64,000 nt of DNA from an uncultured Acidobacteriota bacterium (GCA_963796275.1 CAWCKY010000006.1:128001-192000); one strand, 5' to 3'. Counted from the stretch's first letter, positions 1 through 46,100 are shown. The notes: generated by a model not told the origin, from the sequence alone. Made by a program: numbers and translations.

Positions 1-3000
1 GCCGCCTACCTCGGAAAGCTCGGGGTCGGGCCGGAAACGCCGGTGGGCTTTTGCCTGGAGCGTTCCCCGGAGATGGTCGTCGGTATCCTCGGCATCTTGA
101 AGGCCGGTGGAACCTACGTGCCGTTAGACCCGGCGTATCCCAAAGAGCGCCTGGCCTTCATGCTGGAAGATACTCGGACGCCGGTGATCCTGACTCAGCA
201 AAGGTTGATCGAGCACCTGCCGGAGCATCAGGCCAGTGTCGTTCGAATAGACGCAGACTGGGAATTGATGACAGAGGAGAGCGAGGCGAATCGGGCGAGC
301 GGGGCGACAGCCGGTCATCTGGCCTACATCATGTACACTTCAGGCTCGACCGGCAGGCCGAAAGGGATCGCCATCCAGCACCGGGCCATCAACCGGCTGG
401 TCTTCAATACCAACTACATCGAGATAACGCCCGAGGACCGGATGCTGCTGGCGTCGAACTCGGCCTTCGACGCGGCGACCTTCGAGTTGTGGGGCGCGCT
501 GCTGCACGGAGCGCGGCTGGTGGGGGTCAGCAGAGAGGCGGTCATATCGCCTCGGGAGCTCGCCGCCTCCATCCGCGATCACGGAATAAGCGCGATGTGG
601 CTGACGGCGGCCCTCTTCAATCAAATGACGCGCGAAGTCCCCAAGGCTTTCGGCGCCGTGAAACACCTGCTCATTGGGGGCGAGGCGCTTGATCCCCACC
701 GGGTGCGAGAGGCGCTCAAGAATGACCCGCCCGCTCGGTTGGTGAACGGGTATGGGCCGACGGAGGGCACGACCTTCACTACCTGGTACCTGGCGCAAGA
801 GGCAGCGGAAGGAGCGAGCTCCATTCCCATAGGTCGACCTATCTCTAACACGCAAACATATTTGTTGGATCGTAACCAACAGCCCACGCCCATAGGGATT
901 GCGGGCGAGTTATACATCGGTGGGGATGGACTGGCGCGCGGTTATTTCAATAGGCCGGAGCTGACGGCGGAGAAGTTCGTCCCGAATCCATATAGCGAGC
1001 GGCCGGGCGCGCGGCTCTACCGGACGGGAGACCTGGTCCGTTACCTGCCGGATGGCGCGATTGAGTTCCTGGGGCGGCTCGATCATCAGGTGAAGATCCG
1101 CGGTTTCCGCATAGAGTTGGGCGAGATCGAAGCTGCGCTCAACCGGCATCCGTCGGTGAGAGAGAGCATCGTTCTCCTCAGGGAGGATGCGCCGGGCGAG
1201 AAGCGGCTGGTAGCCTACCTCGCGACCGAGTCGAGGAAGGCGTTCACAGTTGATGATCTCCGTAACTTCTTGCGGCAAAAGTTGCCTGATTACATGACCC
1301 CTGCGGCCTTCGTGACACTGGACGCTCTACCCTTGACGCCGAACGGCAAGATAGACCGCCGCGCGCTGCCTGCGCCGGAACAGTCACGGCCGGAATTAGC
1401 CGAAGCCTTCGTCACGCCGCGTAATCAAGTGGAGGAATTGCTGGCTGCCGCCTGGGCGGACGCGCTGGAGATTGAGCGGGTAGGCGTTCACGACAACTTC
1501 TTCGACCTGGGCGGACACTCTTTGCTGGCGACGAAACTGTTCTCCCGGATCAGAGACACATTTCAAGTGGAGCTGCCGCTGGCCGCTCTGTTTGAGGCGC
1601 CCACGGTCGCCGCTCTGGCCGAGCGCATCGAATCGGCAAAGAGGACGGTGCCGGGTTCGTCGCTTCCGCCATTAACGCCCATCGTGCAGAGGGGTGGACA
1701 TCTACCACTCTCCTACACTCAGCAGCGTCTGTGGTTTTTAGATCAATTGGAGCCTGGTAGCTCCGCTTACAACATCCCGGCCGCCGTACGTCTGACCGGC
1801 GCGCTCGACACGGAAGCGTTCGCGCGAAGCTTCCACGAGATCGTGCGGCGACATGAATCGTTGCGCGCGACGTTCGTCACGGTAAATGGGCAGCCGGCGC
1901 AATTGATCGCTCCGGTGCGGCCGGTGGATTTAACCGTGACGGACTTAGGCGGGCTGACCGAAACACTGCGCGAGCTTGAGGCGGAACGGTTAGCCGACGA
2001 AGAGATGCGACGGTCGTTCGATCTGGCGCGCGGGCCTTTGATCCGCCTGCGCCTGTTGAAACTGGGCGACGAAGATCATATCGCGCTGATGACGATGCAT
2101 CACATCACCAGTGATGGCTGGTCAATCGGAATTCTCATCCGCGAATTCGCCGCGCTCTACCAAGCTTTCACAGCAGGGCTGCCGTCGCCGCTGCCTGAGC
2201 TGCCGATTCAGTATTCGGACTTCGCAGTCTGGCAGCAAGAGTGGTTGCAAGGCGAGGCGCTGAAGACTCAGCTCGCCTACTGGAAGCGGCAGCTTGCGGG
2301 TCTACCCATATTGGAATTGCCCACGGATCGCCCGCGTCCGCCCGTACAAACCTTCCGTGGAGCCTGGCAATCGTTGTTTCTGTCGGCCGAGCAGGCTGAT
2401 TCGCTCAAGGCGCTCAGCCGCCAGGAGGGCGTGACGCTGTTCATGACTTTGTTGGCGGCTTTCAAAACGTTGCTGCGCTATTACACGAATCAAGATGACA
2501 TCGTGGTTGGCTCCGACATCGCCAATCGCACCCGGCGCGAGACCGAAGATTTGATCGGGTTCTTCGTCAACCAACTGGTGCTTCGTACTGACCTGTCCGG
2601 CAATCCAACTTTCCGCGAATTGCTGGGACGGGTGCGCGAAATGACTCTGGGAGCATTCGGGCGTCAGGATATGCCGTTCGGGAAGCTGGTCGAAGAGGTG
2701 CAGCCGCACCGAGACCCGAGCCGTAACCCGCTCTTCCAGGTCATGTTCATTGTCCAAAACGCTCCGATGCCCGAGCTCAAACTTACGGGCCTGACCTTGA
2801 CGCCTCTCGACGTTAAAGGAGAGACCTCGGTGTTTGATCTGACACTGTCGTTTGTTGATGCGGAGCACGGGCGGATTCGTGTGTTGTGCCGCTATAACAC
2901 CGACTTGTTCGAACCTGCCACGATACGGCGAATGCTGGAGCGTCTGGAGGCGCTGTTGAATCGAATTGTGGCGAACCCCGAGGCGAAACTGAGCGACTTG

Positions 3001-4140: not shown

Positions 4141-4265
4141 ATACTGGTACGAGTTTTTCTTCATATACACCTTTACACCTTGGCTGAGGACGAACAAGGC
4201 AACGAGATCATACCCATGGCGTAATAGTCAGCAACGTTATGGAAGGCAGGCGATGGAGCAGACAC

Positions 4266-7200
4266 ATGAGCGACTCGATTTTTGAATCCGACAATTTGTA
4301 TCCACTCTCACATGGTCAGCGGGCTTTATGGTTCGTGCAGCGGTTGGCGCCAAATGGCGTGGCTTACAATTTCGCGCATGCGGCCCGAATTCTGACTGAG
4401 TTGGACATCATCGCTTTTCAACGTGCGATCCAGCAGCTGGTGAGGCGCCATCCGGCGCTCAGGACGACCTTTCCCTCTCGTGACGGGGAGCCGGCGCAGC
4501 GGATTCACGATCACGCGGAGTTCCATTTCCGAACGGAGGACGCGACCTGGTGGAGCGAGGCGCAGTTGAACGAGCGCCTGGCCGAGGAGGTCTACCGCCC
4601 ATTCGATCTGGCGCACGGCCCGCTGCTGCGAATCTTCCTGTTCACTCGGTCAGATCGGGAACATGTCGTCCTCCTGGTGACTCATCACATTGTGGCCGAC
4701 CTCTGGTCGGTGGTGGTGGTTATGTCTGAGTTGGGGGCGCTGTATTCGGCGGAAAAGTCCGGCGGCCCCCTGGGTCTTTCCAGTCCGCCAACGCATGACA
4801 TCGATTATGTCCGCCAGCAAGCCGAGTCGATGACCGGCCCGGAGAGCGAACGACTCTGGGCGTTTTGGCGGAAGCAGTTGGCGGGAGCGCCGCCCATGCT
4901 GAATCTGCGGACCGACCGGCCGTGGCCGCCGGTACAAACCGACCGTGGCGCCTCCCGGACTTTGAGGCTAGGCCAGACGGTTTCGCAGGGACTTAAAGTC
5001 CTGGCCAGAACCCACGGGGCCACGCTGTTTATGACTCTGTTGGCCGCCTTTCAGGCACTGCTTCATCGTTACACCGGTCAAGAAGATATTCTGGTTGCCT
5101 CTCCGATGATCAGGAGGGGGCGTGAGGCGGCGAATCTGGTCGGTTATTTCATTAATCCGGTGGTATTGCGTGCGGATTTTTCGGGAGACCCGACATTCTC
5201 TTCCTTCCTCGATCAAGTGCGCCAGACCGCGCTCGAAGCCTTCGAACACAGCGCCTATCCGTTTCCGCTGCTCATTGAGCAATTGCAGCCGGCGCGGGAC
5301 CCTAGCCGGCCGCCGCTCGTTCAGGTCGCTTTTACCTGGCAGCAGACGACTCGCGTGATCAGCAATCAGGCGATGGCTGCATTTGCAGTGGGCGAAAAGG
5401 GAGGAGGGAGGCTGGAGTTGGGGAAGCTTCAGTTTGAATCCATGGCCCTCGAACCCCGGGTCGCTCCGTTCGAGTTGTTGTTGCTGATGGCCGAAGCGAG
5501 TGAAGAGCTGATAGCTACGGTGGAATACAACACCGACCTGTTCGACGGGGAGACGATGGAACGGATGCTGGAACATTTCCAGACTTTGCTGGAGGGAGTT
5601 GTCGCGGACCCGAAACGGCGAATCTCCGACGCCCCACTATTAACGGCGCGGGAGTTATCGCAAGAACTCGTCGAGTGGAATAGGGCCCCGGCCGAATGTA
5701 CTGAGAGTCAATGCGTCCACCAGCGGTTTGCCGAAGTGGCGGGAGAGAATCCGCAGGCCACCGCCCTGGTTAACGAAGAGGAACAGCTCACATACGAGCG
5801 GCTGAACGAGCGGGCCAATCAGTTGGCTCATTACCTGATGAAACGTGGAATCGGCCCGGAAGTATTGGTCGGCATCTGTATGGAGCGCTCAATCGATATG
5901 GCGGTGAGCTTGCTGGGAATCCTCAAAGCGGGTGGGGCATTTCTACCGCTGGACCCGGCATATCCGAGGGAACGACTGGCATACATGATCAAAGATAGCG
6001 GGGCGAGGATGATCCTGACGCGAGGAACAAGTGAAGGAGGAATATGGGAAAGAGAGGAGGAAATGATCCGGCTGGAGAGTGAATGGGAAATGATCGGGCG
6101 GGAAAGCACAGCTAATCCGGAGGCGGGGACGACGCCCGAGAATCTGGCGTATGTGATCTATACCTCGGGGTCGACGGGCCAACCCAAGGGGACGATGCTC
6201 CATCATCGAGGACTGCGCAATCTGATCGAGGGGCAAAGGCGAGGGTTCAATCCGGGAGCGAGCGATCGAATCCTGCAATTCTCATCGCTGAGCTTCGACG
6301 CGTCGGTATGGGAAGTGGTGATGGCGCTGATGGCAGGAGGAAGCCTGGTATTGCCGAGGCGGGAATCGCTGGCAACGGGTCAGGGGCTGGTGGGAACGAT
6401 GAGGGAGCAAGGGATCACGATAGTGACGTTGCCGCCGTCAATGCTGGGAGTGATGCCGGAGGAGGGGCTGCCGGAGTTACACACGATCATCACGGCGGGA
6501 GAGAAATGTCCTGGGGCATTGGCCGGGATTTGGGGGAAGGGGCGGCGATTCTTGAACGCCTACGGCCCGACGGAGACGACGGTATGCGCGTCAATATATG
6601 AGCTGGGGGAGAAGGATGTGATAGGGAGAGAGGGGAGAGGAGCTAACCCCGAAAACCCGCCGATCGGGCGGCCGATCACGAATTTCCAGATATATGTACT
6701 GGACGGGCAAATGAGACCGGCGGCGGTGGGAATAGCTGGGGAGTTGTATATCGGGGGAGTAGGGCTGGGGCGCGGGTATCTGAACCGGCCGGAGCAGACG
6801 GCCGAGAGGTTCATCCCGCATCCGTTCAGTGAGGAAGTGGGGGCGCGATTGTACAAGAGCGGGGATTTGGTGCGACGGCTGAGTGACGGGAATGTGGAAT
6901 ATGTGGGGCGAATCGATCATCAGGTAAAAGTTCGAGGATTTCGCATCGAGTTGGGAGAGATCGAAGCGGTGCTGAGAGGGCGGGAGGAAATACGTGAAGT
7001 GGTTGTGATGGCGAGGGAAGATGCGCCGGGAGAACGGCGACTGGTGGCGTATCTGGCGGTGGGACCTGGGCAATCTCCCCCGATAAACGAACTGCGAAAC
7101 CTGCTGCGGGAACGATTACCAGACTATATGGTGCCGTCGGCATTCGTCACACTGCAATCTTTCCCCTTGACCCCCAGCGGTAAAGTGGATCGCAGTGCGC

Positions 7201-7547
7201 TGCCGCCGCCCGAAAGACCGCGGCCGGAGTTGGAAGCCGGCTACGTGAGGCCCCGGAACGAGATAGAACGGGTCATCGCGGAAGTTTGGCAAAAGGTATT
7301 GGGCATTGAACGTGTGGGCGTCCATGACAACTTTTTCGACCTGGGCGGGCATTCGTTGATGCTGGCCAAGATCCACAGTCAAATGCAGGAAGTCCTCAAC
7401 CGCGAGTTACCCATGATCGAAATGTTCAAATATCCCACCATCAGTGCCCTGGCCGATTATTTGAGCCGGGAAGACGGCGGCCAACCCTCTTTTCAGATGA
7501 GTCGGCAGCGCGCCAGGGAGCAAATGGACGCGATGAATCTCGGGTAG
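4266..7547 (+). CDS. NRPS single module C-A(Phe)-T with an NRPS-to-PKS type C-terminal tail
   Basis: ATG 4266 has GGAG upstream (the track starts at 4239). C motif THHIVADLWS; code DAWTIAAVCK (GrsA-like Phe); T FFDLGGHSL; tail SRQRAREQ. Confidence 0.9.
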   Translation: MSDSIFESDNLYPLSHGQRALWFVQRLAPNGVAYNFAHAARILTELDIIAFQRAIQQLVRRHPALRTTFPSRDGEPAQRIHDHAEFHFRTEDATWWSEAQLNERLAEEVYRPFDLAHGPLLRIFLFTRSDREHVVLLVTHHIVADLWSVVVVMSELGALYSAEKSGGPLGLSSPPTHDIDYVRQQAESMTGPESERLWAFWRKQLAGAPPMLNLRTDRPWPPVQTDRGASRTLRLGQTVSQGLKVLARTHGATLFMTLLAAFQALLHRYTGQEDILVASPMIRRGREAANLVGYFINPVVLRADFSGDPTFSSFLDQVRQTALEAFEHSAYPFPLLIEQLQPARDPSRPPLVQVAFTWQQTTRVISNQAMAAFAVGEKGGGRLELGKLQFESMALEPRVAPFELLLLMAEASEELIATVEYNTDLFDGETMERMLEHFQTLLEGVVADPKRRISDAPLLTARELSQELVEWNRAPAECTESQCVHQRFAEVAGENPQATALVNEEEQLTYERLNERANQLAHYLMKRGIGPEVLVGICMERSIDMAVSLLGILKAGGAFLPLDPAYPRERLAYMIKDSGARMILTRGTSEGGIWEREEEMIRLESEWEMIGRESTANPEAGTTPENLAYVIYTSGSTGQPKGTMLHHRGLRNLIEGQRRGFNPGASDRILQFSSLSFDASVWEVVMALMAGGSLVLPRRESLATGQGLVGTMREQGITIVTLPPSMLGVMPEEGLPELHTIITAGEKCPGALAGIWGKGRRFLNAYGPTETTVCASIYELGEKDVIGREGRGANPENPPIGRPITNFQIYVLDGQMRPAAVGIAGELYIGGVGLGRGYLNRPEQTAERFIPHPFSEEVGARLYKSGDLVRRLSDGNVEYVGRIDHQVKVRGFRIELGEIEAVLRGREEIREVVVMAREDAPGERRLVAYLAVGPGQSPPINELRNLLRERLPDYMVPSAFVTLQSFPLTPSGKVDRSALPPPERPRPELEAGYVRPRNEIERVIAEVWQKVLGIERVGVHDNFFDLGGHSLMLAKIHSQMQEVLNRELPMIEMFKYPTISALADYLSREDGGQPSFQMSRQRAREQMDAMNLG
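5574..7201 (+). repeat. Phe A-domain repeat, copy 1 (near-identical to 58862-60489)
   Basis: Colinear at a constant offset of 53288 with only scattered substitutions (e.g. FDASVW vs FDAAVW). Confidence 0.92.
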
Positions 7548-7575: not shown

Positions 7576-10500
7576 ATGAATAGTGAACCAAAAGTTTCCG
7601 ATGCGAGTAACCGACTCGACATCGCCATTATCGGTATCGGTTGCCGTTTTCCGGGAGGCGCCAATAGTCCTGGGGCCTACTGGGAATTGCAGCGGAACGG
7701 CGTGGACGCGATCACCGAGGTTCCGGCTGACCGTTGGGACAGTAAAGCCTTCTATCATCCGGACTCGGGCCGGCCAGGCAAGATCAATTCACGTTGGGGG
7801 GGCTTCATCGAACGAATAGATCATTTTGATGCCCGCTTCTTTGGCATCTCCCCTCGGGAAGCCGCACGCATGGATCCCCAGCAGCGGATGCTGCTGGAGG
7901 TTGCCTGGGAGGCGTTGGAGGACGGCGGCCAGACGCTGGAGCGGTTGGCCGGCACGGGGGTCGGAGTTTTCATCGGCGTTTCGACGATGGACTACCAGGA
8001 GATAACTCGTTGCGTGAGTGATCGCGAATTCATTGATGCTCATACGAACACGGGAGGGGCGATGAGCATCGCCGCGAACCGCATTTCCTACGTTTTCGAT
8101 TTCAGAGGACCGAGTTTTGCCGTGGATACCGCTTGCTCATCGTCGCTGACCGCGGTCCATCTCGCCACCCGAAGTCTGCGGGATGGGGAATGCGAACTCG
8201 CCCTGGTCGGCGGTACAAACGCGCTGATCAAACCTGAAACAACAATGGGTTTCAGCCGGGCCTCCATGCTCTCCCCAGACGGACGCTGCAAGGCTTTCGA
8301 CGCCAGCGCCAATGGTTACACGCGCGGTGAAGGCGCCGGGATGGTCGTCTTAAAGCCTCTGAAAAAGGCATTGGCGGACGGCGACCCGATTTATGCCGTC
8401 ATCCGCGGAACCGCGATCAACGAGGATGGGCACACCAGCGGGATCACGGTTCCCGGTCGCCAGGCGCAGGAGGCGATGCTCCGGCAAGCGTACCGACAGG
8501 CCGGAGTGGTGCCAAGCGACGTGCAGTACGTCGAGGCGCACGGGACAGGCACGCCGGTGGGCGATCCAATAGAGGCGCAAGCCCTGGGCGCGGTGCTGGG
8601 CCAGGGGCGTCCTCCCGGTGATCATTGCGTAATCGGTTCGGTCAAAACCAACATCGGACACCTCGAAGCCGGCGCAGGCATCGCCGGATTGATCAAGGTC
8701 GCGCTGATGATGAGGCATCGAGCGATCCCGCCGACCCTGCACTTCCGGGATCCGAATCCAAACATCCCCTTCGAAGAGCTCCGATTGCGGGTTCCACGAA
8801 CGCTCGAACCGTGGCCCGACGGAAAGGGACTGGCCCGGGCGGGCGTAAATTCCTTCGGTTTCGGCGGGGCCAACGCGCACGTGGTCTTGGAAGAAGCTCC
8901 CCAAGAAGATCGAGGATCGGGGATTGAGGATCGAAGATCGCAATCCGCAATCCTCGATCAATCCTCGATCCACAATCCGCAGTCTGCCTATCTTCTGCCG
9001 CTGTCCGCTCGCAGTCCCGAGGCGCTTCGGGCCGTCGCGCAAGCGTACCAGAGTTTTCTGGCCGGCGATGGCGCTGGGACGCCCCTTTCTGACTTGTGCT
9101 ATTCCGCCAGTCTGCGGCGAAGCCACCACGACTACCGATTGGCGCTGGTTGGCCGCTCTCACGAAGAGTTGGCTGGAAGTCTGGCGGCGTTTCTGGCCGG
9201 AGAGACTCGTCACGGGCTCTCATCCGGCCATCCCGTTTTCGGCCATCGTCCCAGGATCGTCTTCGTCTTCTCCGGCATGGGGCCGCAGTGGTGGGCGATG
9301 GGACGGCAGATGCTGGAGCAGGAACCCGTCTTTCGGGAGGCTATAGAACGGTGTGACGAGTTGCTCCGGCGACACGCGAAATGGTCTTTGCTCGAAGAGC
9401 TGTTGGCCGATGAATCCCAATCACGAATGAGCGAAGCGGAGATCGCTCAACCGGCGAATTTCGCGCTCCAGGTCGCGCTCGCCGCCCTGTGGCGTTCCTG
9501 GGGGATTGAGCCGGATGCGATTATCGGCCATAGCGCGGGAGAAGTGGCGGCCATTCACGTGGCAGGGGTGATGAATCTGGAAGAGGCGGTCCGTGTCATC
9601 TTCCATCGCAGCCGATTGCAACAGCGGGCGACCGGGAAAGGGAAGATGGCGGCTGTCAGCCTGTCGTTGGCGGAGGCTGGGCGCGCAATCGAGGGATATG
9701 AAGATCGCGTCTCGATTGCAGCCATCAACAGCCCCATGTCAGTCACTTTGTCCGGCGACGCTGATGCTATCGAGGAGATTGTCCGAACTTTAGAGCTGAG
9801 GCAGGTCTTTTCTCGCATCTTGCAGGTAGAGGTCCCTTATCACAGCCGTCACATGGAGCCTTTCAAGGACGAGTTATCGCAGTCCTTGCGCGATTTGGAA
9901 CTACGGCCCGCTTCGATCCCTCTCTATTCCACTGTTAGCGGCCTGTGCATAGGGCTCGCCGATAGCCGGGAGTTGGACGCGGAATACTGGTGGCGCAATG
10001 TCAGGAACCCCGTTCGCTTCGCGGAAGCGATGGACCGGCTCATTCAAGACGGGCATAACGTTTTCGTCGAATTAAGCCCCCACCCCGTCCTTGCCGGCTC
10101 GATCTCTCAATGCTTGATGCAGAGCGGACAAAAGGGAACCATCCTTCCTTCGCTGCGTCGCCAGGAAGCGGAACGGGAGCAGATGTTAGGGTCTCTCGGC
10201 GTGCTCCACACGCTGGGCAATAAGGTGGAGTGGGAGAGACTATATCCCGAGGGCGGGCGATTCGTCAGGCTGCCGTCCTACCCCTGGCAACACGAGCGTT
10301 ATTGGCAAGAGTCCGAAGTGGCGGAACAGAGCAGACTGGGACGACAGATCCACCCGCTGTTGGGCCGCCGGATGGCTTCGGCCCACCCGTCGTGGGAACT
10401 CGATCTGGATATGCAACACCTGCCATATCTGGGCGACCATCGGGTGCAGGGGACCGTCACCTATCCCGGAGCGGCATACGTGGAATCGGCGCTGGCCGTC

Positions 10501-13500
10501 GCCAGGGAAGTCTTCGGAGACGGGCTTTGCGCGATAAAAGAGATAGAGTTTCAAAAAGCGCTTTTCCTGACTGAAGGCGAAACGACGAAGCTCCAGATGG
10601 TCTTCGATCCAGGAGCGGCCGCTTTCGAGGTCTTCAGCCGGATTAAAGACACCAAGCAGGCTGCCAGACAACCGTGGATTCGCCATTCGGCTGGCAAGCT
10701 ACTCCAGGAGCCCGGCGCCGCTCAACCGGTCGCGCCCTTTTCTATAGATAAGATTCGAAGTCGCTGCGACAAGGATTTCTCAGACATTTGCTATTCCGCT
10801 TTTCGGGGATTCGGCCTCGACTTCGGCCCGTCTTTTCAGGGGATCGAGCGGCTCTGGCGCGGAGACAGTGAAGCGCTGGCGCTGATACAAGTCCCTGAAT
10901 CGGTAGCCGAAGACATTCAGGGCTACCAACTCCACCCGACCCTGATCGACGCCTGCTTCCAATCGCTGCTCGCCTTTTTGCTTGCCGAAGGGGCGGATAA
11001 CAACCGGAAAGGCCCGCTCTATCTCCCCGTGTGGATAGAGCGGCTTCGGGTCTACGGCCGCCACGGCTCTAAACTGTGGAGCTATGCCCGTCTGATTGAG
11101 CTAACCGACGTCGGTCTGGAGGGAGATGTTTGGCTGCTTGACGAAGCCGGAAATGTCTTGATCGAGATACAGGGCTTCCGTCTCCAGGCTCTGGAAGCGG
11201 CGCGGTCCAGCGCTTCAGAGTCTATGACAGACTGGTTGTATGAGTTCGAATGGCAACTTGATCGGCCGGAAGCGCGAATCGGGGAACTGATCTCCTCAAC
11301 ACAGGAGATGCCGGGAAGCTGGATGATCTTCGCGGACAGCGGCGGCGTCGGAGAGAAACTGGCGGAGTTGCTGGCGGCGCGCGGCCAGAAGCCGATTTTG
11401 ATCACCGCGGCAAAATCCTATCGTCGCATCAGTGAGGATCGCTTCCAGCTATGCCCGGAACGAGTGGATGACATCCACCAGCTGTTTGAGGCCGTGTGCG
11501 CCGATGAGCCGGGCGGAGCAAACCGCGCTGGCGGAGCCGGCTGTCGCGGCGTGATACATCTCTGGAGTTTGGATACCGCTCCGCCCGAGGTATTGACGCA
11601 CATCTCGCTGGAGGCGGCGCAGAATCTCGGATGTGGGGCCGCGCTGCGCCTGGTTCAGGAGCTGGCCAAACGCCAATGGACAAATGCTCCCCGCCTCTGG
11701 CTAGTGACGCGTGGCGCGAACACGGTCAGGGCCGGCATTGAGCCAGCCTCGGTCGCTCAATCCCCGCTGTGGGGGCTCGGAAGAGTGATCATCAACGAGC
11801 ACCCGAACCTGCGCTGCCGGATGGTCGATTTGTGCCCGCCTGGCCGAATGGACTCCTCACAAGAGATTCAACTGCTCTTCGACGAGTTGTGGATGGACGA
11901 CCATGAAGAAGAGGTCGCTTTTCGGGATGGCATGCGCTACGTCCACAGGATGAACAAAATGGCGGCCAAAGTCTCCGAAGCTGAGTCGCAGGAAAGATTC
12001 AAAGCCGGGGATGATCAACCTTTCCGCCTGGAGATTTCAGAGCCAAGGCTCCTGGACGCCTTGACACTGCGTGCGACACGGCGTGAGGCGCCAGGCCCCG
12101 GAGAAGTTGAAATTAAAGTACACGCGGCTGGTCTCAACTTCATGGATGTAATGAAGGCGGTAGGCATCTATCCTGCCGAAGACTTCAGCGAAACGACCTG
12201 GCTCGGCAGCGAATGCGCTGGCACGGTCGTTGCCGTGGGAGAAGGCGTGAGCGAATTTCGCCTCGGAGACGAAGTCATAGCGGTGGCTAGCGGTTGCTTC
12301 AGCGCCTTCGTCAAGACCGACGCCAATCTGGTAGTCCGCAAAACATCTCATCTCAGCTTTGAGGAAGCAGCGACGATTCCGATTGTTTTCCTGACGGCTT
12401 ATTACGCGCTCAGTCATCTGGCGCGACTGCGGAAAGGCGAGCGAGTGCTTATTCACGCCGCTGCCGGGGGCGTCGGCCTGGCCGCCATCCAATACGCCCA
12501 ATACATCGGCGCGGAGGTCTTCGCCACGGCGGGAAGCCCCGAAAAACGTGAGCTGCTGCGATCTCTGGGGGTGCGGTGGGTGATGGATTCACGATCCCTT
12601 GATTTCGCCGATGAGGTAATGGAGATCACCGGCGGAACGGGCGTGGATGTCGTCTTGAACTCTTTAATCGGAGAGGCCATCCCAAAGAGCCTCTCGGTTC
12701 TGGGCGCCTACGGGCGTTTCCTGGAGATCGGCAAACGCGATATTTATCAGAACAGCAAGTTGGGGCTCCGGCCTTTCCGAAACAACCTGTCGTATTTCGC
12801 CATTGACATATCTCGGCTATGTTTCAGAACGCCTGAAGTGGCCGGCAAATTTTTCCGCGAGCTGATGCATTATTTCGAGGACGGAACTCTCCGCTCCGTC
12901 CCGTATCAACCCTTCTCTATTTCAGATGCCGTGAGCGCCTTCCGCTACATGGCCCAGGCGAAACACACGGGAAAGATCGTGCTGTCGCTGCAAGGCCAGG
13001 AGGTGTGGGTGGCGCCCGCCGTCCATCAGGAGGAAGGGCAGGTTCTCCCGTTCCGTTCCGATGGGACGTATCTCATCACAGGAGGCTTGGGCGGGTTCGG
13101 CTTGGCAATCGCCCGGTGGATGGTTGAGCGAGGAGCGCGGCATCTGGTCTTGATGGGAAGAAGCGGGGCGTCGTCTCGCGAAGCGGAGACAGCCCTGGAG
13201 GCAATGGAACAAGCCGGCGCCGAGGTCGTCGTCGCCCGGACGGATGTCAGTAAGGAGCGGCAGTTGGCCGAGGTTCTCGACAACATACATAGATTCATGC
13301 CGCCGTTGAGGGGCATCGTCCACGCGGCGATGGTTATTGACGATGGCTATCTGTTCCAACTCGATGAGGAGCGCTTCAAGAAAGTAATGGCGCCCAAAGC
13401 CGTGGGCGCCTGGAATCTGCACACCCAGACCTTGACCTGCCCGTTGGATTTCTTTGTGCTTTTCTCCTCGGTCACGTCACTGATCGGGAATCCGGGGCAG

Positions 13501-31900: not shown

Positions 31901-32045
31901 GTGCCTGGAAACGCTGGCCGAAGCCGACCGCCGCCGCCGGGGCATGAAAGAGGAAGAATTCAAAGCTGTCAGCCGTCAGAAATTGCGAAATATCAGGCGG
32001 AAAACGATGGACAGCACCCAATCGAGTAATGGTGATGAAAGGTAA
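25981..32045 (+). CDS. NRPS C(DCL)-A(Asn)-T-E-C(DCL); one apparent frameshift near 30350 joins track ORFs 25975..30561 and 30402..32045
   Basis: YPLSPLQQGMLFH and YHHLLLDGWS (DCL); code DATKIGEVGK (Asn); T GGDSI; E HHLAIDG/LEGHGRE/RTVGWFT. Adding one G at 30350-30352 restores SPRGSRRYPLEIN, which aligns with the paralogous E domains. Terminal C YHHLLLDGWS. Confidence 0.88.
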
Positions 32046-35000: not shown

Positions 35001-36906
35001 GGCGAGAGAGGGGATGGAGATCGAGGGGAGCGAGTTGCGGCGATATATGAGTGAGAGATTGCCCGAGTACATGGTACCTGGAGCGATAGTGAAGTTGGAG
35101 CGGATGCCGTTGACGGCGAACGGGAAGTTGGATCGAGGGGCGTTGCCGGAGCCTGAGAGTGAGATGGAGGGAGAGTATGTGGCGCCGCGGACGCAGATCG
35201 AAGAACTGGTAGCCGGCGCCTGGGCCGAGGTTTTAAAGCTAGATGAGATTGGTGCTCACGATGATTTTTTCGAATTGGGCGGGCACTCTCTGCTGGTTAC
35301 CCGCGTCGCTTCTCGTTTGTCCGAAGCCATTCAGATAGAGATCCCTTTTCAAATCTTCTTCGAGAAGCGGACGGTGGCCGAGCTCGCCGAGAGCATCGAG
35401 GCAGCCCTTCGAGGAGAACAAGGTTTGCGAATGCCGCCCATACTGCCGGTAGCGCGAGATCGGGAATTACCTCTCTCTTTCGCCCAGCAACGGCTCTGGT
35501 TTTTCGATCAATTGGAGCCGAACAGCTCCGCCTACAACATTCAAGATGCGGTTCGCCTCGCGGGGCGGCTCGACTCGCGAGCCTTGGAGCAAACGCTCAG
35601 TGAGATCGTGCGGCGCCATGAGGTCTTGCGAACCAGTTTCCCGGCGGTCAACGGGCGTCCGGCGCAGGTGATCGCCGAAGCCAGGCCGATGAGGTTGCCG
35701 ATAGTCGATCTAAGCGATCTGCCGCAGTCGCAACGGGAGGCTGAAGCGAGTCGGCTTGTTGCGGAGGAGGCCGTGCGGCCCTTCCGCTTGGATCAGGGAC
35801 CGTTGTTGCGAGGCGGATTATTAAGGCTCCAGGAGGATGATCACATCCTGATATTCACAGTGCATCACATTATCAGCGATGCCTGGTCAATGGGCGCGCT
35901 GGTTCGAGAAGTGGCGGCGCTCTACGCGGCTTTCTCCGCAGGGAGCCCCTCGCCCTTGCTCGAGCCACGCGTCCAGTACGCGGACTACGCGCATTGGCAG
36001 CGCGAGTGGTTGCGCGGAGAGGTTCTGGATCGTCATGTGTCTTACTGGAAGGAACGGCTCGACGGCATTCCAGCGGCGCTGCTACTGCCCACCGACCGGC
36101 CCCGACCGGCGACGCAGACGTTTCGCGGCGAGCGGCATTTCCTGGAGCTTTCTCGACCGATGACCGATGCCATCAAAGCGCTGAGCCGCCACGAAGGTGC
36201 GACTCTTTTCATAACACTGCTGGCGGCCTTTAAAGTTCTGATGCGCTACTACGCTTCGCAGGACGACATCGTGGTGGGGACCAACGTCGCCAATCGCAAT
36301 CACTCTGAGACCGGGGACATGGTGGGGTTCTTCGTCAACCAGCTGGTGTTGCGCTCCGATCTGTCGGGCGATCCAGGGTTTCGAGAGTTGCTGAGCCGCG
36401 TTCGTCGCGTAGCGTTGGAAGCGTACAGTCATCAGGACCTGCCTTTTGAGAAGCTGGTTGAAGAGCTACAGCCGCGCCGAGATATGAGCCGCTCGTTGTT
36501 GTTTCAGGTCAAATTCGAGATGCAAGAAGGCATCAGTCGCATCCTCGAGCTTCCGGGCTTGACGCTGTCACCTATGGAGAGCGAGCACAAAGTGGTGAGA
36601 CACGATCTGCACCTTTCAATGTGGGAGCGCGAGCAAAGGTTGAGCGGCGCGTTGCAGTACAACATCGACCTCTTCAGCGCCGGCGCGATAGAGAGGATCG
36701 CGCGCGATTTCGTTGCCCTTCTTGAAATGATCATGGAAGAGCCGGACGCCAGGCTGAGTGTGTTGGAAGAAAGGCTGCTTGAAAAGGGCAGGCACCAAAA
36801 GATGAAGGAAGAGAAAGAATTGGAAGAAGCCAGCCTGAAGATGCTGAGAAGCAAGAGACGAAAAGCCGCATTAAGCGCGAAGGATAGCCAATATCCTATA
36901 TCTTGA
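32053..36906 (+). CDS. NRPS I-A(Asp)-T-C(LCL); start uncertain (32029 or 32053)
   Basis: TIEGFRLSPQQAHLW; RLPALCADAAS replaces HHxxxDG; code DLTKVGHVGK (Asp); T FFELGGHSL; terminal C VHHIISDAWS. Confidence 0.9.
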   Translation: MFSSSVEVRDKNIEKESKATIEGFRLSPQQAHLWLLQQEAQYPPYNSECVVLIKGPLDAQLLEAVLNQVVRRHEILRTTFRRLPAMTLPLQVISEKGQVMMRTCNLNGPVAHAQEGSIESLLKETGLDEAGRTPFDFERGPMLQTTLARLTPETHLLSLRLPALCADAASLENLAREISRDYAAHFNGAEAPDEPSQYADLAEWQNELLESAETKAGRDYWRERSLAAPLVAPLPFENRRAEKNKTGSALGRFTPRSLPAAVDPDLAAQIAALAHRHGTSIKIVLQACWQILLWRGAGEIPIGVSYDGRNYEGLQDALGLFVRFLPINCHLEEDFTFVEVLNQLGESAREAQAWQECYTWEQKDDNGLTFFPLCYEYSDLHTGYQAGSSAFSVVHLSACTDRFKLKLAALHHADRLILDIHYDADLFTRDDIALLARQYLTLLGNAVAAPGAALEELSLLGETQRERILRQFNPAPTSFSPRPIHHLIEAQAALRPEATAVVVEDQQLSYGELNRRANQLAHHLQMLGVGPEEVVGLSLERSVELVVGMLAILKAGGAYLPLDPALPAERLAGMMAAARPRVVVTQERLRIGDWAASTTENDDWGLGAEDWECTDMLRQLRVPIFVVSGRRARAEGSTAILNPQSANRKPVMVCLDAEGEMIGSESDENPGSQVGPEHLVYVLFTSGSTGRPKGVAVEHRQLHAYLEGVRERLGLPEEASYATVTTFAADLGHTAIFPALCGGGTLHVVSKERAADAWGMSEYFRRHRIDCLKIVPSHLKALLGVKDGAQALPGRRLVLGGEASSWELIGRVRGLAPELRIMNHYGPTETTVGVLTCEVEQEGEQESGNVPLGRPLKGARVYVLDRRMEPAAVWVVGEVYVGGEQVARGYLNEAEQTAVRFVPDPYSEEEGKRLYRTGDLGRYMPDGRVEFLGRADDQVKIRGYRIELGEIEEALKEHAGVGESVVVISESADGEKRLVAYVAAREGMEIEGSELRRYMSERLPEYMVPGAIVKLERMPLTANGKLDRGALPEPESEMEGEYVAPRTQIEELVAGAWAEVLKLDEIGAHDDFFELGGHSLLVTRVASRLSEAIQIEIPFQIFFEKRTVAELAESIEAALRGEQGLRMPPILPVARDRELPLSFAQQRLWFFDQLEPNSSAYNIQDAVRLAGRLDSRALEQTLSEIVRRHEVLRTSFPAVNGRPAQVIAEARPMRLPIVDLSDLPQSQREAEASRLVAEEAVRPFRLDQGPLLRGGLLRLQEDDHILIFTVHHIISDAWSMGALVREVAALYAAFSAGSPSPLLEPRVQYADYAHWQREWLRGEVLDRHVSYWKERLDGIPAALLLPTDRPRPATQTFRGERHFLELSRPMTDAIKALSRHEGATLFITLLAAFKVLMRYYASQDDIVVGTNVANRNHSETGDMVGFFVNQLVLRSDLSGDPGFRELLSRVRRVALEAYSHQDLPFEKLVEELQPRRDMSRSLLFQVKFEMQEGISRILELPGLTLSPMESEHKVVRHDLHLSMWEREQRLSGALQYNIDLFSAGAIERIARDFVALLEMIMEEPDARLSVLEERLLEKGRHQKMKEEKELEEASLKMLRSKRRKAALSAKDSQYPIS
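33253..35225 (+). repeat. I-end/Asp A-domain repeat, copy 1 (almost identical to 44283-46255)
   Basis: Constant offset of 11030; only a few differences seen by eye (e.g. agggacgctg vs aggaacgctg). Confidence 0.95.
33814..34000. repeat. Nested heptamer inverted-repeat insertion (~60 codons) in frame in the Asp A domain; duplicated at 44844-45030
   Basis: Outer arms agattgcggataggggattg / caatcctcaatccgcaatct (18/20 complementary); inner gactggggattgggggctgaggactggg / gagtcccca. It sits between VVTQER and MVCLD. Confidence 0.82.
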
Positions 36907-40932: not shown

Positions 40933-41948
40933 TTTTGAAAGGTCCTGACGTCCAGACGCTGCTTGCCGGACGCGAGATCGAGATTATAAAGGCGGCGCAG
41001 AGCGCTTACGAGACGCACGCCCGAGGCGAGAGTTCATTGCCTCACTCCACGTTTCTGCGCTTTCCCGATAATCAGCGGGACAGGATCATCGCCTTGCCTG
41101 CTTACCTGGGCGGTCCATTCGGGGTCGCCGGCGTCAAATGGGTGGCCTCATTTCCCGGCAATCTGGAAAGAGAGTTGGAACGGGCTTCGGCGCTGGTGGT
41201 ATTGAATTCGACGGAAACTGGCAGGCCCCAAGCCATCCTCGAAGGATCCATCATCAGCGCGAAGCGAACCGCCGGGAGCGCTGCTCTGGCTGCGCAATGG
41301 TTGCACAACGGCAAAGACGCCAATCCCGCAGGCTTGATCGGATGCGGGTTGATCAATTTCGAAATCGCCAGGTTCCTCCTGGCGGCGACGCCTGAGATCG
41401 GTCATTTCGTCGTTCAAGATTTGGACCTGGCCCGCGCAGAGCTGTTCAAGGCCAGGCTCCAACAGACATTCGGTAAGGTCGAGGTGGAGATCGCCAAAGA
41501 CGTGAAGACAGTTCTGCGACGCTGCCCGCTCATCTCGCTGGCGACCACGGCGATAACGCCGCACATCGGCGACCTACGGGATGTCTCTCCAAACGCGACG
41601 ATCCTCCACGTCTCGCTGCGAGACCTCTCGCCCCAGGTCATTCTCTCCTGCGACAACGTGGTGGACGACATTGATCACGTCTGCCGCGCCCAGACTTCTA
41701 TCCACCTGGCAGAACAGCTCACTGGTGGTAGGGATTTCATCCGCTGCTCTCTGGCCGACATTCTGATGGGCAAGACCGCCGCCCGCAGCGACGCCGAGAG
41801 CATCGCCGTCTTCACCCCGTTCGGCCTGGGAGTGCTCGACCTGGCAGTTAGCCAGCTCGTCCGGGACCTTGCGCTCGAACAGGGATGTGGAACTTTCATC
41901 CGGTCGTTTCTGCCCGAACCATGGGTTGGGTCTACGCCGAACTGTTAG
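40911..41948 (+). CDS. sbnB: SbnB-family ornithine-cyclodeaminase-like enzyme (2,3-diaminopropionate biosynthesis)
   Basis: LPHSTFLRFP, RIIALPAYLGG, KWVASFPGN, ISAKRTAGSA, GLIGCGLIN, PFGLGVLDLA. Confidence 0.92.
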   Translation: MHSCDILILKGPDVQTLLAGREIEIIKAAQSAYETHARGESSLPHSTFLRFPDNQRDRIIALPAYLGGPFGVAGVKWVASFPGNLERELERASALVVLNSTETGRPQAILEGSIISAKRTAGSAALAAQWLHNGKDANPAGLIGCGLINFEIARFLLAATPEIGHFVVQDLDLARAELFKARLQQTFGKVEVEIAKDVKTVLRRCPLISLATTAITPHIGDLRDVSPNATILHVSLRDLSPQVILSCDNVVDDIDHVCRAQTSIHLAEQLTGGRDFIRCSLADILMGKTAARSDAESIAVFTPFGLGVLDLAVSQLVRDLALEQGCGTFIRSFLPEPWVGSTPNC

Positions 41949-42036
41949 TTGGCTTCTTTGGAAAGCCCATAGAAGATCAGTCGGTCTGGTGGCGAAAGCA
42001 GCGCGAACTAACAGTTCGCCAAACATCAAGGTAGTT

Positions 42037-43089
42037 ATGCAAAAAACAAAATCAACGGCGCCCGGCTTGGGAAAAATGGGCGCCGTCAAGCGTAAGACTG
42101 TCAGCGTTTCAACGGAAAGGTTGATTGTGATGGAACCGCTCAGGCCGGGCGTTTCGCTTCCATTGGTAATTAGCCCCGCTTATCCCGGGGTAGACATAAT
42201 CGAATGGGCGCAGCGTAATCCCGAGTCTATCGATATGTGGTTGCTCAAACACGGCGCAATACTTTTCCGGGATTGGCGGATGAACTCCGTTGACGAATTC
42301 GAGCGGTTTGCGGCTGCCGTCGCCGGGGAAGATTTGATGGATTATTCCTATCGCTCCACGCCCCGGAGCGCGGTGAGCGGCAAAATCTTCACTTCAACCG
42401 AGTACCCCGCAGATCAATCCATTCCTCTGCACAACGAGATGGCGTACTCGCGCGTCTGGCCAATGAAGATCTGGTTTCATTGCGTGAAAGCCGCCGAAGT
42501 GGGCGGGGAGACGCCGATAGCCGACAGCCGGGAAGTCTTCGCGCGCATTGACCCGCGAGTTCGCGAGCAGTTCATGCGGAAGCAGGTGCTCTACGTTCGC
42601 AACTATGGGGGCGGACTGGACCTCTCCTGGCAAAACGTGTTCCAGACCACAAGCAGATCGGAAGTTGAGGCGTTCTGTCTCAGAGCCGGAATCGAATTTG
42701 AGTGGAGGGGCGGAGACCGTTTGAGGACGCGCCAGGTCTGTCAGGCCGTCGCTAGGCACCCGAGGACTGGCGAGATGGTCTGGTTCAATCAGGCGCATCT
42801 CTTCCATGTGTCGAGCCTCACGCCGGAAATGCGCGACCTGTTTCTTGCGGAATTCAAAGAAGAAGAACTCGCGCGCAACGTCTATTACGGCGACGGATCT
42901 TCGATCGAACCGTCAGCCCTGGAAGCGATTCGTCAGGCTTACCGGCAAGAGACGGTCACCTTCCCGTGGCAATCGGGTGACATTTTGATGCTCGACAATA
43001 TGCTTGCCGCACATGGACGAACCCCATTCGCCGGCTCGCGAAAGGTCATCGTGGCAATGGCCGAGTCTTTCGCCAGCCAAGACATTTAG
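42037..43089 (+). CDS. Stand-alone TauD/SyrP-like Fe(II)/2-oxoglutarate hydroxylase (probable aminoacyl-PCP beta-hydroxylase)
   Basis: HGAILFR, YRSTPRS, IPLHNEMAY, GGETPIADSR, WFNQAHLFH, DNMLAAHGR. ATG 42037 avoids the overlap with sbnB. Confidence 0.9.
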   Translation: MQKTKSTAPGLGKMGAVKRKTVSVSTERLIVMEPLRPGVSLPLVISPAYPGVDIIEWAQRNPESIDMWLLKHGAILFRDWRMNSVDEFERFAAAVAGEDLMDYSYRSTPRSAVSGKIFTSTEYPADQSIPLHNEMAYSRVWPMKIWFHCVKAAEVGGETPIADSREVFARIDPRVREQFMRKQVLYVRNYGGGLDLSWQNVFQTTSRSEVEAFCLRAGIEFEWRGGDRLRTRQVCQAVARHPRTGEMVWFNQAHLFHVSSLTPEMRDLFLAEFKEEELARNVYYGDGSSIEPSALEAIRQAYRQETVTFPWQSGDILMLDNMLAAHGRTPFAGSRKVIVAMAESFASQDI

Positions 43090-43121: not shown

Positions 43122-46100
43122 GTGCATAAGAAAAACCACACAACCATAGAAGGATTTCGTCTTTCGCCTCAACAAGCGCGCCTCTGGATGTTGCAGCAGG
43201 ATGTCCGATCGGCGCCGTACACGGCCCGATGTTCCATCTCGATCGAGGGCGCGCTTGATGCGCAGCTTTTGGAGGCGGCGCTCAATCAGGTAGTTCAGCG
43301 GCATGAAATCCTACGCACCACATTTCACCGTTTGCCCGCAATGATGCTCCCGCTGCAGGTGATCGCGGGCGATGGCAGGCTGGTGATCCGGACGCAAGAT
43401 TATAGCGGATGGGCGGAGGAGGAGCAGAATGCCGGGCTCGAGTTGTTGGAGCGCGAGGCGGACCAGACGCCGTTCGACCTTGAGCGAGGGCCGCTGGCGC
43501 GTGCTCATCTCATCAAACTGGCGCCGGATCGGCACCTGCTACTTCTGCTGCTGTCGGCGTTGTGCGCGGATCGGGCGAGCTTGGAGAACCTGGCGCGGGA
43601 GATCGGGTTCTGTTACGCCGCTTACCTGAACGGCGACGAACTGCCAGCCGCGCCAGCGCAATACGCCGACCTGGCCGAATGGCAGAACGAGTTGCTCGAA
43701 TCGGAGGAGACGGAAGCCGGCCGGGAGTATTGGCGGCGGCGTGATCTTTCGAGCCTCTTGCGTATCAAGGCGCCGTTCGAGAACCGGCGCGGGGACGGCG
43801 AGGGTGAGCTGGCGGAATTTGCGCCGCGGCTTCTGTCCGCGACGGTAAATGCCGAACTGGCGGCGAAGGTCGAGGCGCTGGCCCGCGAGCTGCATAGTTC
43901 TGAATCGAACATTCTGCTGGCCTGCTGGCAAGCATTGCTCTGGCGACTTACCGGTCAGACAGAGATCATCGCCGGCGTCGCTTATGAGCAGCGGAAACAC
44001 GACGAACTCAAGGGGGCGCTCGGACTCTTTACCAAGTATTTACCGGTTCATTGCCTCCTGGGAGCGGACAGGCGATTGATCGACGTTTTAGAGCAGATCA
44101 ACAACTCAGCGCGCGAGCTATATAAATGGCAAGAGTATTTCACCTGGGAACAGATCGCCGGATCGAATGGACATCTCAATGCCACGCCTTTCTTCCACGT
44201 CTGCTTCGAGTTTTCAGAACAACCCGCGATTTACCGGGCGGGCGCAGGCGCCTTCTCGATCTCGCGTCAAGACGCCTGCGTTGACCGTTTCAAACTCAAG
44301 CTCGCCGCGCTCCATCGCGCCGATCGCTTGATCCTGGACATCCACTACGACGCCGACCTCTTCACGCGCGATGACATCGCCCTACTGGCTCGGCAGTATC
44401 TGACTTTACTCGGCAACGCCGTCGCGGCTCCCGGCGCCGCGCTCGAGGAGTTGAGCCTGCTCGGAGAGACACAGCGGGAGCGTATCCTGCGCCAGTTCAA
44501 TCCGGCGCCCACCAGCTTCTCGCCCCGTCCCATCCATCATCTAATCGAGGCTCAGGCAGCGCTCAGGCCCGAAGCCACGGCGGTGGTGGTGGAAGACCAG
44601 CAACTGAGTTACGGCGAACTCAACCGTCGCGCCAACCAACTGGCCCATCACTTGCAAATGCTGGGCGTCGGTCCTGAAGAGGTGGTGGGCTTGAGCCTCG
44701 AACGCTCGGTGGAGTTGGTGGTGGGGATGCTGGCGATTCTGAAAGCTGGAGGGGCATACCTGCCGCTGGACCCGGCTCTGCCGGCCGAGCGGCTGGCGGG
44801 CATGATGGCGGCCGCGAGGCCGCGGGTGGTGGTGACGCAGGAGAGATTGCGGATAGGGGATTGGGCGGCCTCCACCACAGAAAATGATGACTGGGGATTG
44901 GGGGCTGAGGACTGGGAATGTACAGATATGTTGCGCCAGCTCCGAGTCCCCATATTCGTTGTATCCGGGCGTCGCGCACGAGCAGAAGGGTCCACGGCAA
45001 TCCTCAATCCGCAATCTGCAAACCGCAAACCCGTGATGGTTTGTCTGGATGCGGAGGGGGAGATGATAGGGAGTGAAAGCGATGAAAACCCCGGCAGCCA
45101 GGTGGGGCCGGAGCATCTGGTTTACGTGCTGTTCACCTCGGGTTCGACCGGGAGGCCGAAAGGAGTGGCGGTCGAGCACCGGCAGCTGCACGCATATCTG
45201 GAAGGAGTGCGGGAGCGGTTGGGACTGCCGGAAGAGGCGAGCTATGCGACGGTGACGACCTTCGCGGCCGATTTGGGGCACACGGCGATCTTTCCGGCGC
45301 TGTGCGGGGGAGGAACGCTGCACGTGGTGAGTAAGGAGCGAGCGGCAGACGCGTGGGGGATGAGTGAGTATTTCAGGCGGCATCGGATCGACTGCCTGAA
45401 GATAGTGCCGTCGCACTTGAAGGCGCTGTTGGGGGTGAAGGATGGGGCGCAGGCATTGCCTGGGCGGCGGCTGGTGTTGGGGGGAGAAGCGTCGAGCTGG
45501 GAGTTGATCGGGCGTGTGCGGGGGTTGGCGCCGGAGCTGAGGATAATGAATCACTACGGGCCGACGGAGACGACGGTGGGAGTGTTGACCTGTGAGGTGG
45601 AGCAAGAGGGAGAGCAAGAGAGTGGGAATGTGCCGTTGGGGCGACCGCTGAAGGGAGCGCGGGTGTACGTGCTGGACCGGCGGATGGAGCCAGCGGCGGT
45701 GTGGGTAGTGGGAGAGGTGTACGTGGGAGGGGAGCAGGTGGCGCGCGGCTATTTGAATGAAGCGGAGCAGACGGCGGTGCGATTCGTGCCGGATCCATAC
45801 AGTGAGGAGGAGGGGAAGAGGTTGTACCGGACGGGAGATTTGGGGAGGTACATGCCGGATGGACGAGTGGAGTTTCTGGGACGAGCGGATGATCAGGTGA
45901 AGATAAGAGGGTACCGGATCGAGTTGGGAGAGATCGAGGAGGCGCTCAAAGAGCATGCGGGAGTGGGAGAGAGCGTGGTGGTGATAAGCGAGAGCGCGGA
46001 TGGGGAGAAGCGGCTGGTGGCGTATGTGGCGGCGAGAGAGGGGATGGAGATCGAGGGGAGCGAGTTGCGGCGATATATGAGTGAGAGATTGCCCGAGTAC

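Follow-up and report, generated by a model that had tools for sequence, protein, structure and literature searches.

Reitz and colleagues reportedly described, in 2019, a histidine-less domain of the condensation (C) superfamily that stands before the adenylation (A) domain of a hydroxylated residue and beside an Fe(II)/2-oxoglutarate (2OG) beta-hydroxylase of the IbetaH or TbetaH kind in the nonribosomal peptide synthetases (NRPSs) of proteobacterial siderophores. In the cyanochelin B (ccs) cluster of Leptolyngbya sp. NIES-3755 plasmid 2 (AP017310.1), beta-hydroxyaspartate is placed by passages of the cyanochelin B paper at the CcsI and CcsL positions; the fused hydroxylase of CcsFGH precedes CcsI, and the free hydroxylase CcsK precedes CcsL. 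For myxoglucamide of Cystobacterineae sp. MCy9003, parts of the published account (PMC13638107) describe MxgA as ending in ACP-C-Ox, MxgB as I-A(Glu)-PCP (I, interface domain; PCP, peptidyl carrier protein), MxgC as a polyketide synthase (PKS) with KR, DH and epimerization (E) domains and MxgD as opening with a DCL domain; hydroxylation of Glu-S-PCP and condensation are mutually dependent in that system. Sections of the antiSMASH 8 paper state that profiles for siderophore beta-hydroxylases and interface domains were added, and sections of a metallophore-mining paper distinguish the hydroxylase classes TBH_Asp, IBH_Asp, IBH_His and two cyanobacterial ones. Here we describe three NRPS proteins that open with I-type domains in a stretch of 64,000 nucleotides (the window, positions 128001-192000 of contig C6) from the genome of an uncultured Acidobacteriota bacterium (9.46 Mb in 7 contigs, 53-55% G+C). 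The organism, a soil acidobacterium whose nearest kin are metagenome-assembled genomes (MAGs) of Blastocatellales and Pyrinomonadaceae, carries a hybrid PKS-NRPS region of ~110 kb, and the window takes up the middle of this region.

Our reading, to which we give a probability of about 0.8, is that these proteins are the downstream halves of split modules. A C domain, with or without a fused hydroxylase of the TauD family, would end one protein, and the next NRPS protein would open with a histidine-less I domain followed by A and thiolation (T) domains; the amino acid loaded on that T domain would probably be beta-hydroxylated while tethered, in step with condensation in trans. The fused TauD of the first window protein (ORF1) would act on glutamate loaded by the module at 14967, from which the chain would pass to a PKS with an E-type end domain and then to a DCL domain. 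The free TauD would act on the aspartate of the 43122 module and possibly also on that of the near-identical 32053 module, in keeping with CcsK and CcsL of cyanochelin B. The proteins concerned are listed below; the map was built from Pfam, motif scans and profiles of our own making applied to stop-to-stop open reading frames (ORFs), and all large window genes lie on the plus strand. Bare coordinates are window positions, and those prefixed C6 or C4 are contig positions.

1..4140, plus strand: ORF1, open at its 5' end, with its start 1.6 kb before the window; full protein C-A(Val-type code)-T-LCL-TauD (Pfam, code).
1669-3042 and 3139-4137, plus strand: in-window domains of ORF1, LCL (HHITSDG) and fused TauD respectively (Pfam).
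14967..18272, plus strand: I-A(Glu-type code DAKDLGVVDK)-T, with I at 14967-16346 (LPSICAD), A at 16362-17921 and T at 17973-18182.
18546..25808, plus strand: PKS KS-AT-KR-DH-ACP with an E-type end domain at 24255-25739 (Pfam, TIGR01720).
25975..32045, plus strand: DCL-A(Asn-type code)-T-E-DCL, with a frameshift at ~30345-30357 inside E read through; terminal DCL-type C at 30582-31958 (HHLLLDG).
32053..36906 (ORF from 32029), plus strand: I-A(Asp code DLTKVGHVGK)-T-LCL, with I at 32089-33483 (LPALCAD) and the terminal LCL at 35434-36771 (HHIISDA).
41869..43089, plus strand: free TauD-family Fe(II)/2OG hydroxylase, domain 42139-43086 (Pfam), 32 nt before the 43122 I module.
43122..51139, plus strand: I-A(Asp code DLTKVGHVGK)-T-LCL-A(Thr-type)-T-E, with I at 43122-44513 (LSALCAD); frameshifts at ~47465 and ~49080 read through.
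60915 onward, plus strand: LCL-A-T-LCL, ending 1.65 kb beyond the window; its terminal C domain is the fourth, just outside the window.

As a preliminary description of the window had pointed out, the proteins at 14967, 32053 and 43122 share a GFRLSPQQ start and carry other residues in place of HHxxxDG. In the motif scan, LPSICAD came at residue 143 in the 14967 protein and LSALCAD at residue 144 in the 43122 protein; LPALCAD came at residue 169 in the ORF from 32029, which is residue 161 when counting begins at the Met at 32053. In an alignment of the 16 window C-superfamily domains only these three lacked both catalytic histidines. The match to Pfam Condensation (PF00668) is weak for the 14967 domain, which reaches 205 bits versus 318-400 for ordinary C domains, and the N-terminal match at 43122 also scores low. 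A profile made from the three domains and run against all 40,805 stop-to-stop ORFs of the genome returned the seeds at 836-882 bits, three further domains at 460-481 bits (C6:194211, C6:206425 and C4:26813) and the rest of the 96 domain matches at no more than 235 bits, so the motif pattern is not a product of chance. A divergent domain at C4:32601 (219 bits) joins the I-like domains on the tree described next.

We placed these domains in a C-superfamily tree of 81 rows (IQ-TREE quick search, LG+C20) that included every unbroken C-type domain 380 or more residues long within C6:118-245 kb and C4:10-50 kb, one in four of the genome's remaining domains, all such domains of four reference loci and I-like domains from 20 of 79 related loci of our choice, frameshift-cut domains being excluded. 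All 31 I-like rows fell on one side of a branch with a Shimodaira-Hasegawa-like approximate likelihood ratio test (SH-aLRT) support of 98, apart from the DCL (99), E (99) and main LCL (99) groups, and a grouping with LCL or starter-like C domains, which the preliminary description had named as fatal to its idea, was thus not seen. Besides the three window domains, the clade takes in those of CcsL and CcsI from cyanochelin B and one located behind a C-TauD fusion of a Janthinobacterium lividum plasmid. By tblastn, CcsL matched at 35.6% identity (E = 2e-69), and the non-cyanobacterial matches listed (H12-H40) had at most 31% identity and E values of 1e-39 or weaker. In an alignment of 63 I-like members, made up of the 3 from the window and the first 60 among 80 that qualified, none has a histidine at either HH position, 62 retain the aspartate, and GFRLSPQQ, CWQxLLWR and the consensus LPxLCAD are strongly kept.

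An AlphaFold model of the 43122 I domain (predicted local distance difference test score 90.4, predicted template-modelling score 0.90) has the full C fold, and Foldseek matched it to solved C domains with query-based template-modelling scores (TMq) of 0.75-0.83. The X domain of glycopeptide synthetases, which is likewise a dead C-fold domain serving oxygenases on a carrier-bound substrate, scored 0.76 (4tx3), no closer in fold than ordinary C domains; it differs in lying at the C-terminal end of the last module and in recruiting Oxy P450s rather than a TauD. A sequence search of the PDB found no solved I domain, the best match being the teixobactin Txo2 C domain (E = 4e-43), and NCBIfam offered no specific name for the TauDs or the I domain. 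On these sequence criteria, the N-terminal domains of the 14967, 32053 and 43122 proteins are interface-type domains that have lost their catalytic histidines. Their N-terminal position, like that of a starter C domain, and the missing histidines would also suit three decayed starter or ordinary C domains, each I-A-T protein starting an assembly line of its own. We find this scarcely credible, since the domains form a separate, well-supported clade with strongly conserved motifs of its own, each is preceded by a C-ending protein that is otherwise without an acceptor module, and the arrangement recurs in a cluster of known product, that of cyanochelin B.

The setting of I-like domains was surveyed in relatives of the first window I domain, a search that matched 124 stretches, of which 98 were confirmed and the best 80 kept, giving 79 loci of ~20 kb each; the nearest relatives among these best 80 of 98 were Blastocatellales and Acidobacteria MAGs at 68-69% identity. 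At a threshold of at least 280 bits the loci contain 93 I-like domains. Immediately upstream, 38 of them have a fused C-TauD, 16 a C domain and a free TauD in that order, 6 a pair of TauDs, 4 a TauD whose own upstream sequence is unknown, 18 a C domain alone, 7 a contig edge or no domain and 4 something else (split I domains; a PKS in locus L001). Of the 86 whose upstream sequence can be read, 64 thus have a TauD directly upstream, and a C domain or a TauD precedes 82; not one of the 93 is joined in one frame to a C or TauD before it. The three window I domains each mark a split module, the C domain of which is carried by the protein before.

The whole region (C6:126-216 kb) has three TauDs, five proteins with a C domain at their end, followed in two of these by a fused TauD, and five with an I domain at their start. 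ORF1 would pair with 14967, the protein ending at 32045 with its direct neighbour 32053, the protein ending at 36906 with 43122, the protein starting at 60915 with C6:194217 and the DCL-TauD protein at C6:201401 with C6:206425. The partners of the second and third pairs are simply neighbours; the first pair is backed by the TauD tree and by the related locus L003, as set out below. The preliminary description had taken this pairing to define the assembly order, which remains sensible, and had put it at exactly three to three, which the five pairs and three TauDs of the region, together with a second small cluster of the same kind elsewhere in the genome, do not bear out. Its count of exactly three window proteins ending in C holds for those ending at 4140 (with the fused TauD), 32045 and 36906; the PKS at 18546-25808 also ends in a C-superfamily domain, which is of E type (TIGR01720, 157 bits against a cut-off of 74). 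Reading 30402-32045 as a free-standing C protein was dropped, the E domain running on in that frame.

All five TauD genes of the genome sit in its two regions with I-like domains. The second and smaller of these, on the minus strand at C4:17624-46940 (L088 and L089), reads TauD, then I-A(Gln-type)-T-LCL-TauD, then I-A(Asn-type)-T; its first TauD is free and its first I domain divergent, and each TauD falls among hydroxylases whose following module has the same code class. In the C6 region beyond the window, the two-domain DCL-TauD protein (C6:201401-203806, L081) comes after an I-A(Asp)-T-E protein, from which an Ig-like-repeat protein separates it. A further arrangement, in which a KS protein and an LCL protein precede I-A-T-LCL-A-T, recurs in seven loci from Binatia and deltaproteobacterial MAGs (L023, L025, L042, L044, L047, L050 and L069), whose I modules are coded DARHMGVIDK or DMKNLGIANK and which contain no TauD in the ~15-21 kb covered.

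Ten-residue substrate codes were read from a profile alignment anchored on the motifs of one window A domain, at code positions that we take from GrsA numbering. The 14967 module has the code DAKDLGVVDK, 9 of 10 residues of which are identical to a signature reported for Glu and Gln, and the Asp/His association from which the preliminary description started is not supported for this one. The 32053 and 43122 modules share DLTKVGHVGK, one position off the CcsL and CcsI codes and listed in a survey as an Asp/Asn signature, mostly Asp. Under class names of our own assignment, the 93 I modules of the relatives divide into 35 Asp-like, 12 Gln-like, 10 Glu-like, 8 Asn-like and 2 His-like codes, 7 of the form DARHMGVID, 5 of the form DxKNxGxAN, 3 others and 11 unreadable. 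The I family thus extends well past Asp and His, the residues for which the proteobacterial siderophore I domains were reportedly described, the wider clade here adding Asn-, Gln- and Glu-type and unassigned codes.

The hydroxylases tend to cluster by the same division. In 62 of 62 aligned TauDs, the two of the window among them, the iron and 2OG residues H98, E100, H292, R294 and R301 do not vary. On a TauD tree of 82 rows, the downstream code class needs 10 changes, compared with a mean of 28.2 after shuffling and with no shuffle of 200 as low, a count that suggests clustering rather than proving it, as kinship inflates such counts. The sister (98) of the ORF1 TauD, at 79% identity, is L003's fused TauD; in L003 the NRPS genes next after that TauD, with two small ORFs in the intervening 1.8 kb, encode I-A(DAKDLGVVDK)-T, then KS..T-E, then DCL; because of the tree and this arrangement we pair the ORF1 TauD with 14967. 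The free window TauD groups with free Asp hydroxylases, CcsK among them (support 81). These groupings suggest a pairing rule in which the hydroxylase clade predicts the code of the module served. We noted a single mismatch to it, the TauD at C6:201401, which belongs to the fused-Asp clade and is 86% identical to that of L009, yet is followed by an I module (C6:206425) coded DFWHFGQVDK, an unassigned code. A predicted complex of the 43122 I domain with the free TauD scored 0.00 in both runs, which counts neither way on binding.

The cyanochelin B record, mapped in the same way, reads ..LCL-TauD followed by I-A-T, and E-DCL followed by TauD and then I-A-T-E. Like the region studied here, it is a hybrid PKS-NRPS cluster with a C-fused and a free TauD, after each of which comes a protein that opens with an I-like domain and continues with Asp A and T domains; its I domains fall in the same clade, its Asp codes are one position away, and CcsK is in the group of the window free TauD. 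It differs in being cyanobacterial and plasmid-borne, with a ferric-siderophore receptor and iron ABC transporter genes in its flanks, of which none were found here among the ORFs scanned, in having I domains only ~36% identical to those of the window, in lacking a Glu-type module and in having two I modules versus five in this region. The joint presence of a fused and a free hydroxylase, part of what the preliminary description called unusual, is not so: cyanochelin B has both with I modules, and many related loci have two or more.

The Glu-type part of the window resembles myxoglucamide. Compared by domain order alone, ORF1, 14967, 18546 and 25975 match MxgA to MxgD; here three genes stand between the C-TauD protein and the I module, the collinear form being found in L003. 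Pfam scans brought no MxgE-like C-FMN monooxygenase to notice, and the window chain continues through many more NRPS modules, whereas Mxg ends. By this analogy, the idea of hydroxylase-gated condensation may be said to have a direct precedent in myxoglucamide.

As an observation on the same cassette, the HHxxxD motif of the E-type domain that ends the PKS after I-A-T is without its second histidine in 4 of 4 cases looked at, with HN in the window (24255-25808), HY in L001:18925-20301 and L003:18763-20139 and HC in L011:9401-10846, while the two NRPS E domains of the window keep HH. The PKS-terminal domain could be a new functional subtype acting on a gamma-amino-acyl chain, for example in double-bond migration or vinylogous epimerization.

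Several points weigh against the split-module, hydroxylase-coupled reading. The groups of the C-superfamily tree were first labelled with profiles of our own making, which is partly circular, and the tree came from a quick search; the Janthinobacterium row stands on a long branch as sister of the other I-like rows, and the link to the named I family, whose founding references are cupriachelin and alterobactin, runs through cyanochelin, this one Janthinobacterium locus and literature descriptions. A TauD is not directly upstream of 18 of the 86 readable I-like domains, and 12 of these have none in the sampled locus; the 32053 module is itself preceded by a C domain without a TauD. Three genes (for the C-A-T protein, the PKS and the 201-residue protein) part ORF1 from 14967, and at least partly so in L001. 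Four in-domain frame breaks interrupt the window genes, at ~30350 (E), 47465 (LCL), 49080 (A) and 57457 (T). In myxoglucamide, parts of PMC13638107 report that the I domain is dispensable in vitro, unlike that of glidomide. The Glu specificity of 14967 is a tentative assignment that combines its 9/10 identity to the Glu/Gln signature with our taking DAKDLGVVDK to be a Glu code.

Some of these points would be expected if the I domain were mainly a docking adaptor for a C domain in trans, with hydroxylase recruitment a frequent add-on and 32053 adding plain Asp. The absence of in-frame fusions and the nearly constant presence of C or TauD upstream fit such a role, as do the 18 of 86 domains that follow a C domain without a TauD, the 7 DARHMGVID-coded modules, all without any TauD in their loci, and the TauD-less DCL domain that precedes 32053. 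So does the comparison of the two Asp modules, whose A domains are 99.8% identical and whose I domains share just 62% identity, as though each of the latter had been adapted to the partner upstream of it, and so does the statement, in the same parts of PMC13638107, that hydroxylation in myxoglucamide works without the I domain in vitro. On the other side, a TauD lies directly upstream in 64 of 86 cases, and the free TauD is just 5 kb downstream of the 32053 gene; the sampled loci cover only ~20 kb, so that a TauD may lie farther off, and the glidomide I domain is quoted in passages of PMC13638107 as indispensable for His hydroxylation. We consider docking with hydroxylase recruitment as a frequent extra, and a plain Asp from 32053, rather unlikely; that I domains are general split-module adaptors tuned to the upstream C domain, and not dedicated hydroxylase recruiters, we judge unlikely. 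We retain the reading in which hydroxylation of the tethered residue would accompany condensation.

The frame breaks raise the separate question of whether the assembly line is made at all. If they were real, the cluster would be decaying, as the four in-domain breaks (~30350, 47465, 49080 and 57457) and three more downstream of the window could suggest. Contigs from soil metagenomes (runs X1-X5, which cover small shares of the window) were compared over 30001-50000, with 57457 lying outside this range. At 47465, contigs of 4 of 4 soil runs have one base fewer, one of these contigs (151 nt) being otherwise identical; at 30350, one related soil contig has one extra base; and at 49081, one X3 contig has one base fewer, run X1 being the same as the window, which speaks for decay at that site. 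The single-base differences of the soil contigs thus fall exactly at the frame breaks, the domains flanking every break are full length and well conserved, and a long-read assembly is suggested by a 9.46-Mb genome in 7 contigs. The breaks are probably long-read consensus errors, and we regard decay as improbable.

Two observations downstream of the window concern the same issue. At C6:210351 and C6:213553 (L081/L086), tandem near-identical LCL domains are broken at the same profile position (247/249), which may be a systematic consensus error in a repeat. At C6:222297-229859 (L086:10297-17859), an A domain is seemingly split near its N-terminus by a frame of 440 residues matching DUF3326 (Pfam, 301 bits) that overlaps both flanking ORFs, and this could be an embedded domain or the result of further frameshifts.

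Three long, near-identical direct repeats lie in the window:

33253-35225 versus 44283-46255, plus strand: 1,973 nt, 99.8% identical (blastn), with no difference in protein sequence; end of the I domain plus the whole Asp A domain of both modules.
5562-7205 versus 58850-60493: 1,644 nt, 98.2% identical.
52592-53800 versus 62434-63642: 1,209 nt, 96.9% identical.

All three span whole A domains, and the adjoining I or C domains stay divergent, which points to recent gene conversion between modules for the same substrate. The remaining genes of the window are as follows:

4239..7547, plus strand: C(HHIVADL)-A(Phe-type code)-T protein, between the C-TauD protein and its proposed partner (Pfam, code).
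7576..14226, plus strand: fully reducing PKS module KS-AT-DH-ER-KR-ACP (Pfam).
14336..14941, plus strand: 201-residue protein, directly upstream of the Glu-type I module.
36943-38757, plus strand: carbamoyltransferase (Pfam).
38813-39829, plus strand: protein like ornithine carbamoyltransferase (OTCase) (Pfam).
39853-40932, plus strand: SbnA, for 2,3-diaminopropionate (NCBIfam 442.6, cut-off 350).
40911-41948, plus strand: SbnB, for 2,3-diaminopropionate (NCBIfam 410, cut-off 327).
51145-60922, plus strand: DCL-A-T-LCL-A-T-LCL-A-T.

The C domain of the 4239 protein keeps both histidines, and this protein is not an interface module; the 81-row tree puts this C domain, with weak support (83), together with C domains from the first modules of two proteobacterial NRPSs. 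The 201-residue protein (14336-14941) has no match in Pfam or NCBIfam and is 75.9% identical to an ORF in the equivalent place beside the I module in L001, the closest relative and the only locus of the gap survey with a homologue. A conserved accessory gene in the C-TauD/I gaps of 1.3-2.1 kb in 8 loci was considered and rejected, as the contents differ by their N-terminal sequences; by our own reading of those sequences, they presumably include a radical-SAM enzyme, an asparagine synthetase, a thioesterase and a KAS III.

Genes for a tetratricopeptide repeat (TPR) protein, an Nramp transporter (3.6 kb off) and central metabolism lie upstream of the first PKS gene; downstream are genes for two MacB-type permeases, a major facilitator superfamily (MFS) exporter, MbtH, HlyD, an ABC ATPase and a type II thioesterase, and then unrelated genes. 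Among the ORFs scanned over 108-248 kb of the contig, which were mostly those on the plus strand with at least 130-150 residues, we found no TonB-dependent receptor, periplasmic or siderophore-binding protein or FecCD-type permease; the remark in the preliminary description that siderophore uptake genes are missing stands within that scope. The product could still be an iron-binding metallophore acting through beta-hydroxyaspartate, like cyanochelin or cupriachelin, and not an antibiotic-type lipopeptide: three I modules of the region are Asp-coded, two of them in the window, the nearest characterized relative is a siderophore cluster, and the Nramp gene encodes a metal transporter. Besides the missing uptake genes and the presence of the MacB-type permeases, HlyD, ABC ATPase and MFS exporter, it tells against this that, according to sections of the metallophore-mining paper, beta-hydroxyaspartate also occurs in non-siderophore lipopeptides, which confound detection, and the metallophore rule needs a counter-profile. 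We see a metallophore as possible, while leaning against it.

Because the split-module design, in which a C or C-TauD protein precedes an I-A-T protein, is already in the literature and in antiSMASH 8, the finding itself is an ordinary one. Its value lies in an acidobacterial case that joins cyanochelin-type Asp modules and a myxoglucamide-type cassette from Glu to a gamma-amino acid in one assembly line. If I domains were chiefly adaptors, part of the family, namely the DARHMGVID-coded modules of Binatia and deltaproteobacterial MAGs, would work free of TauD, and the 32053/43122 pair would give one plain and one hydroxylated Asp. The TauD-less subgroup bears on the disputed role of I domains.

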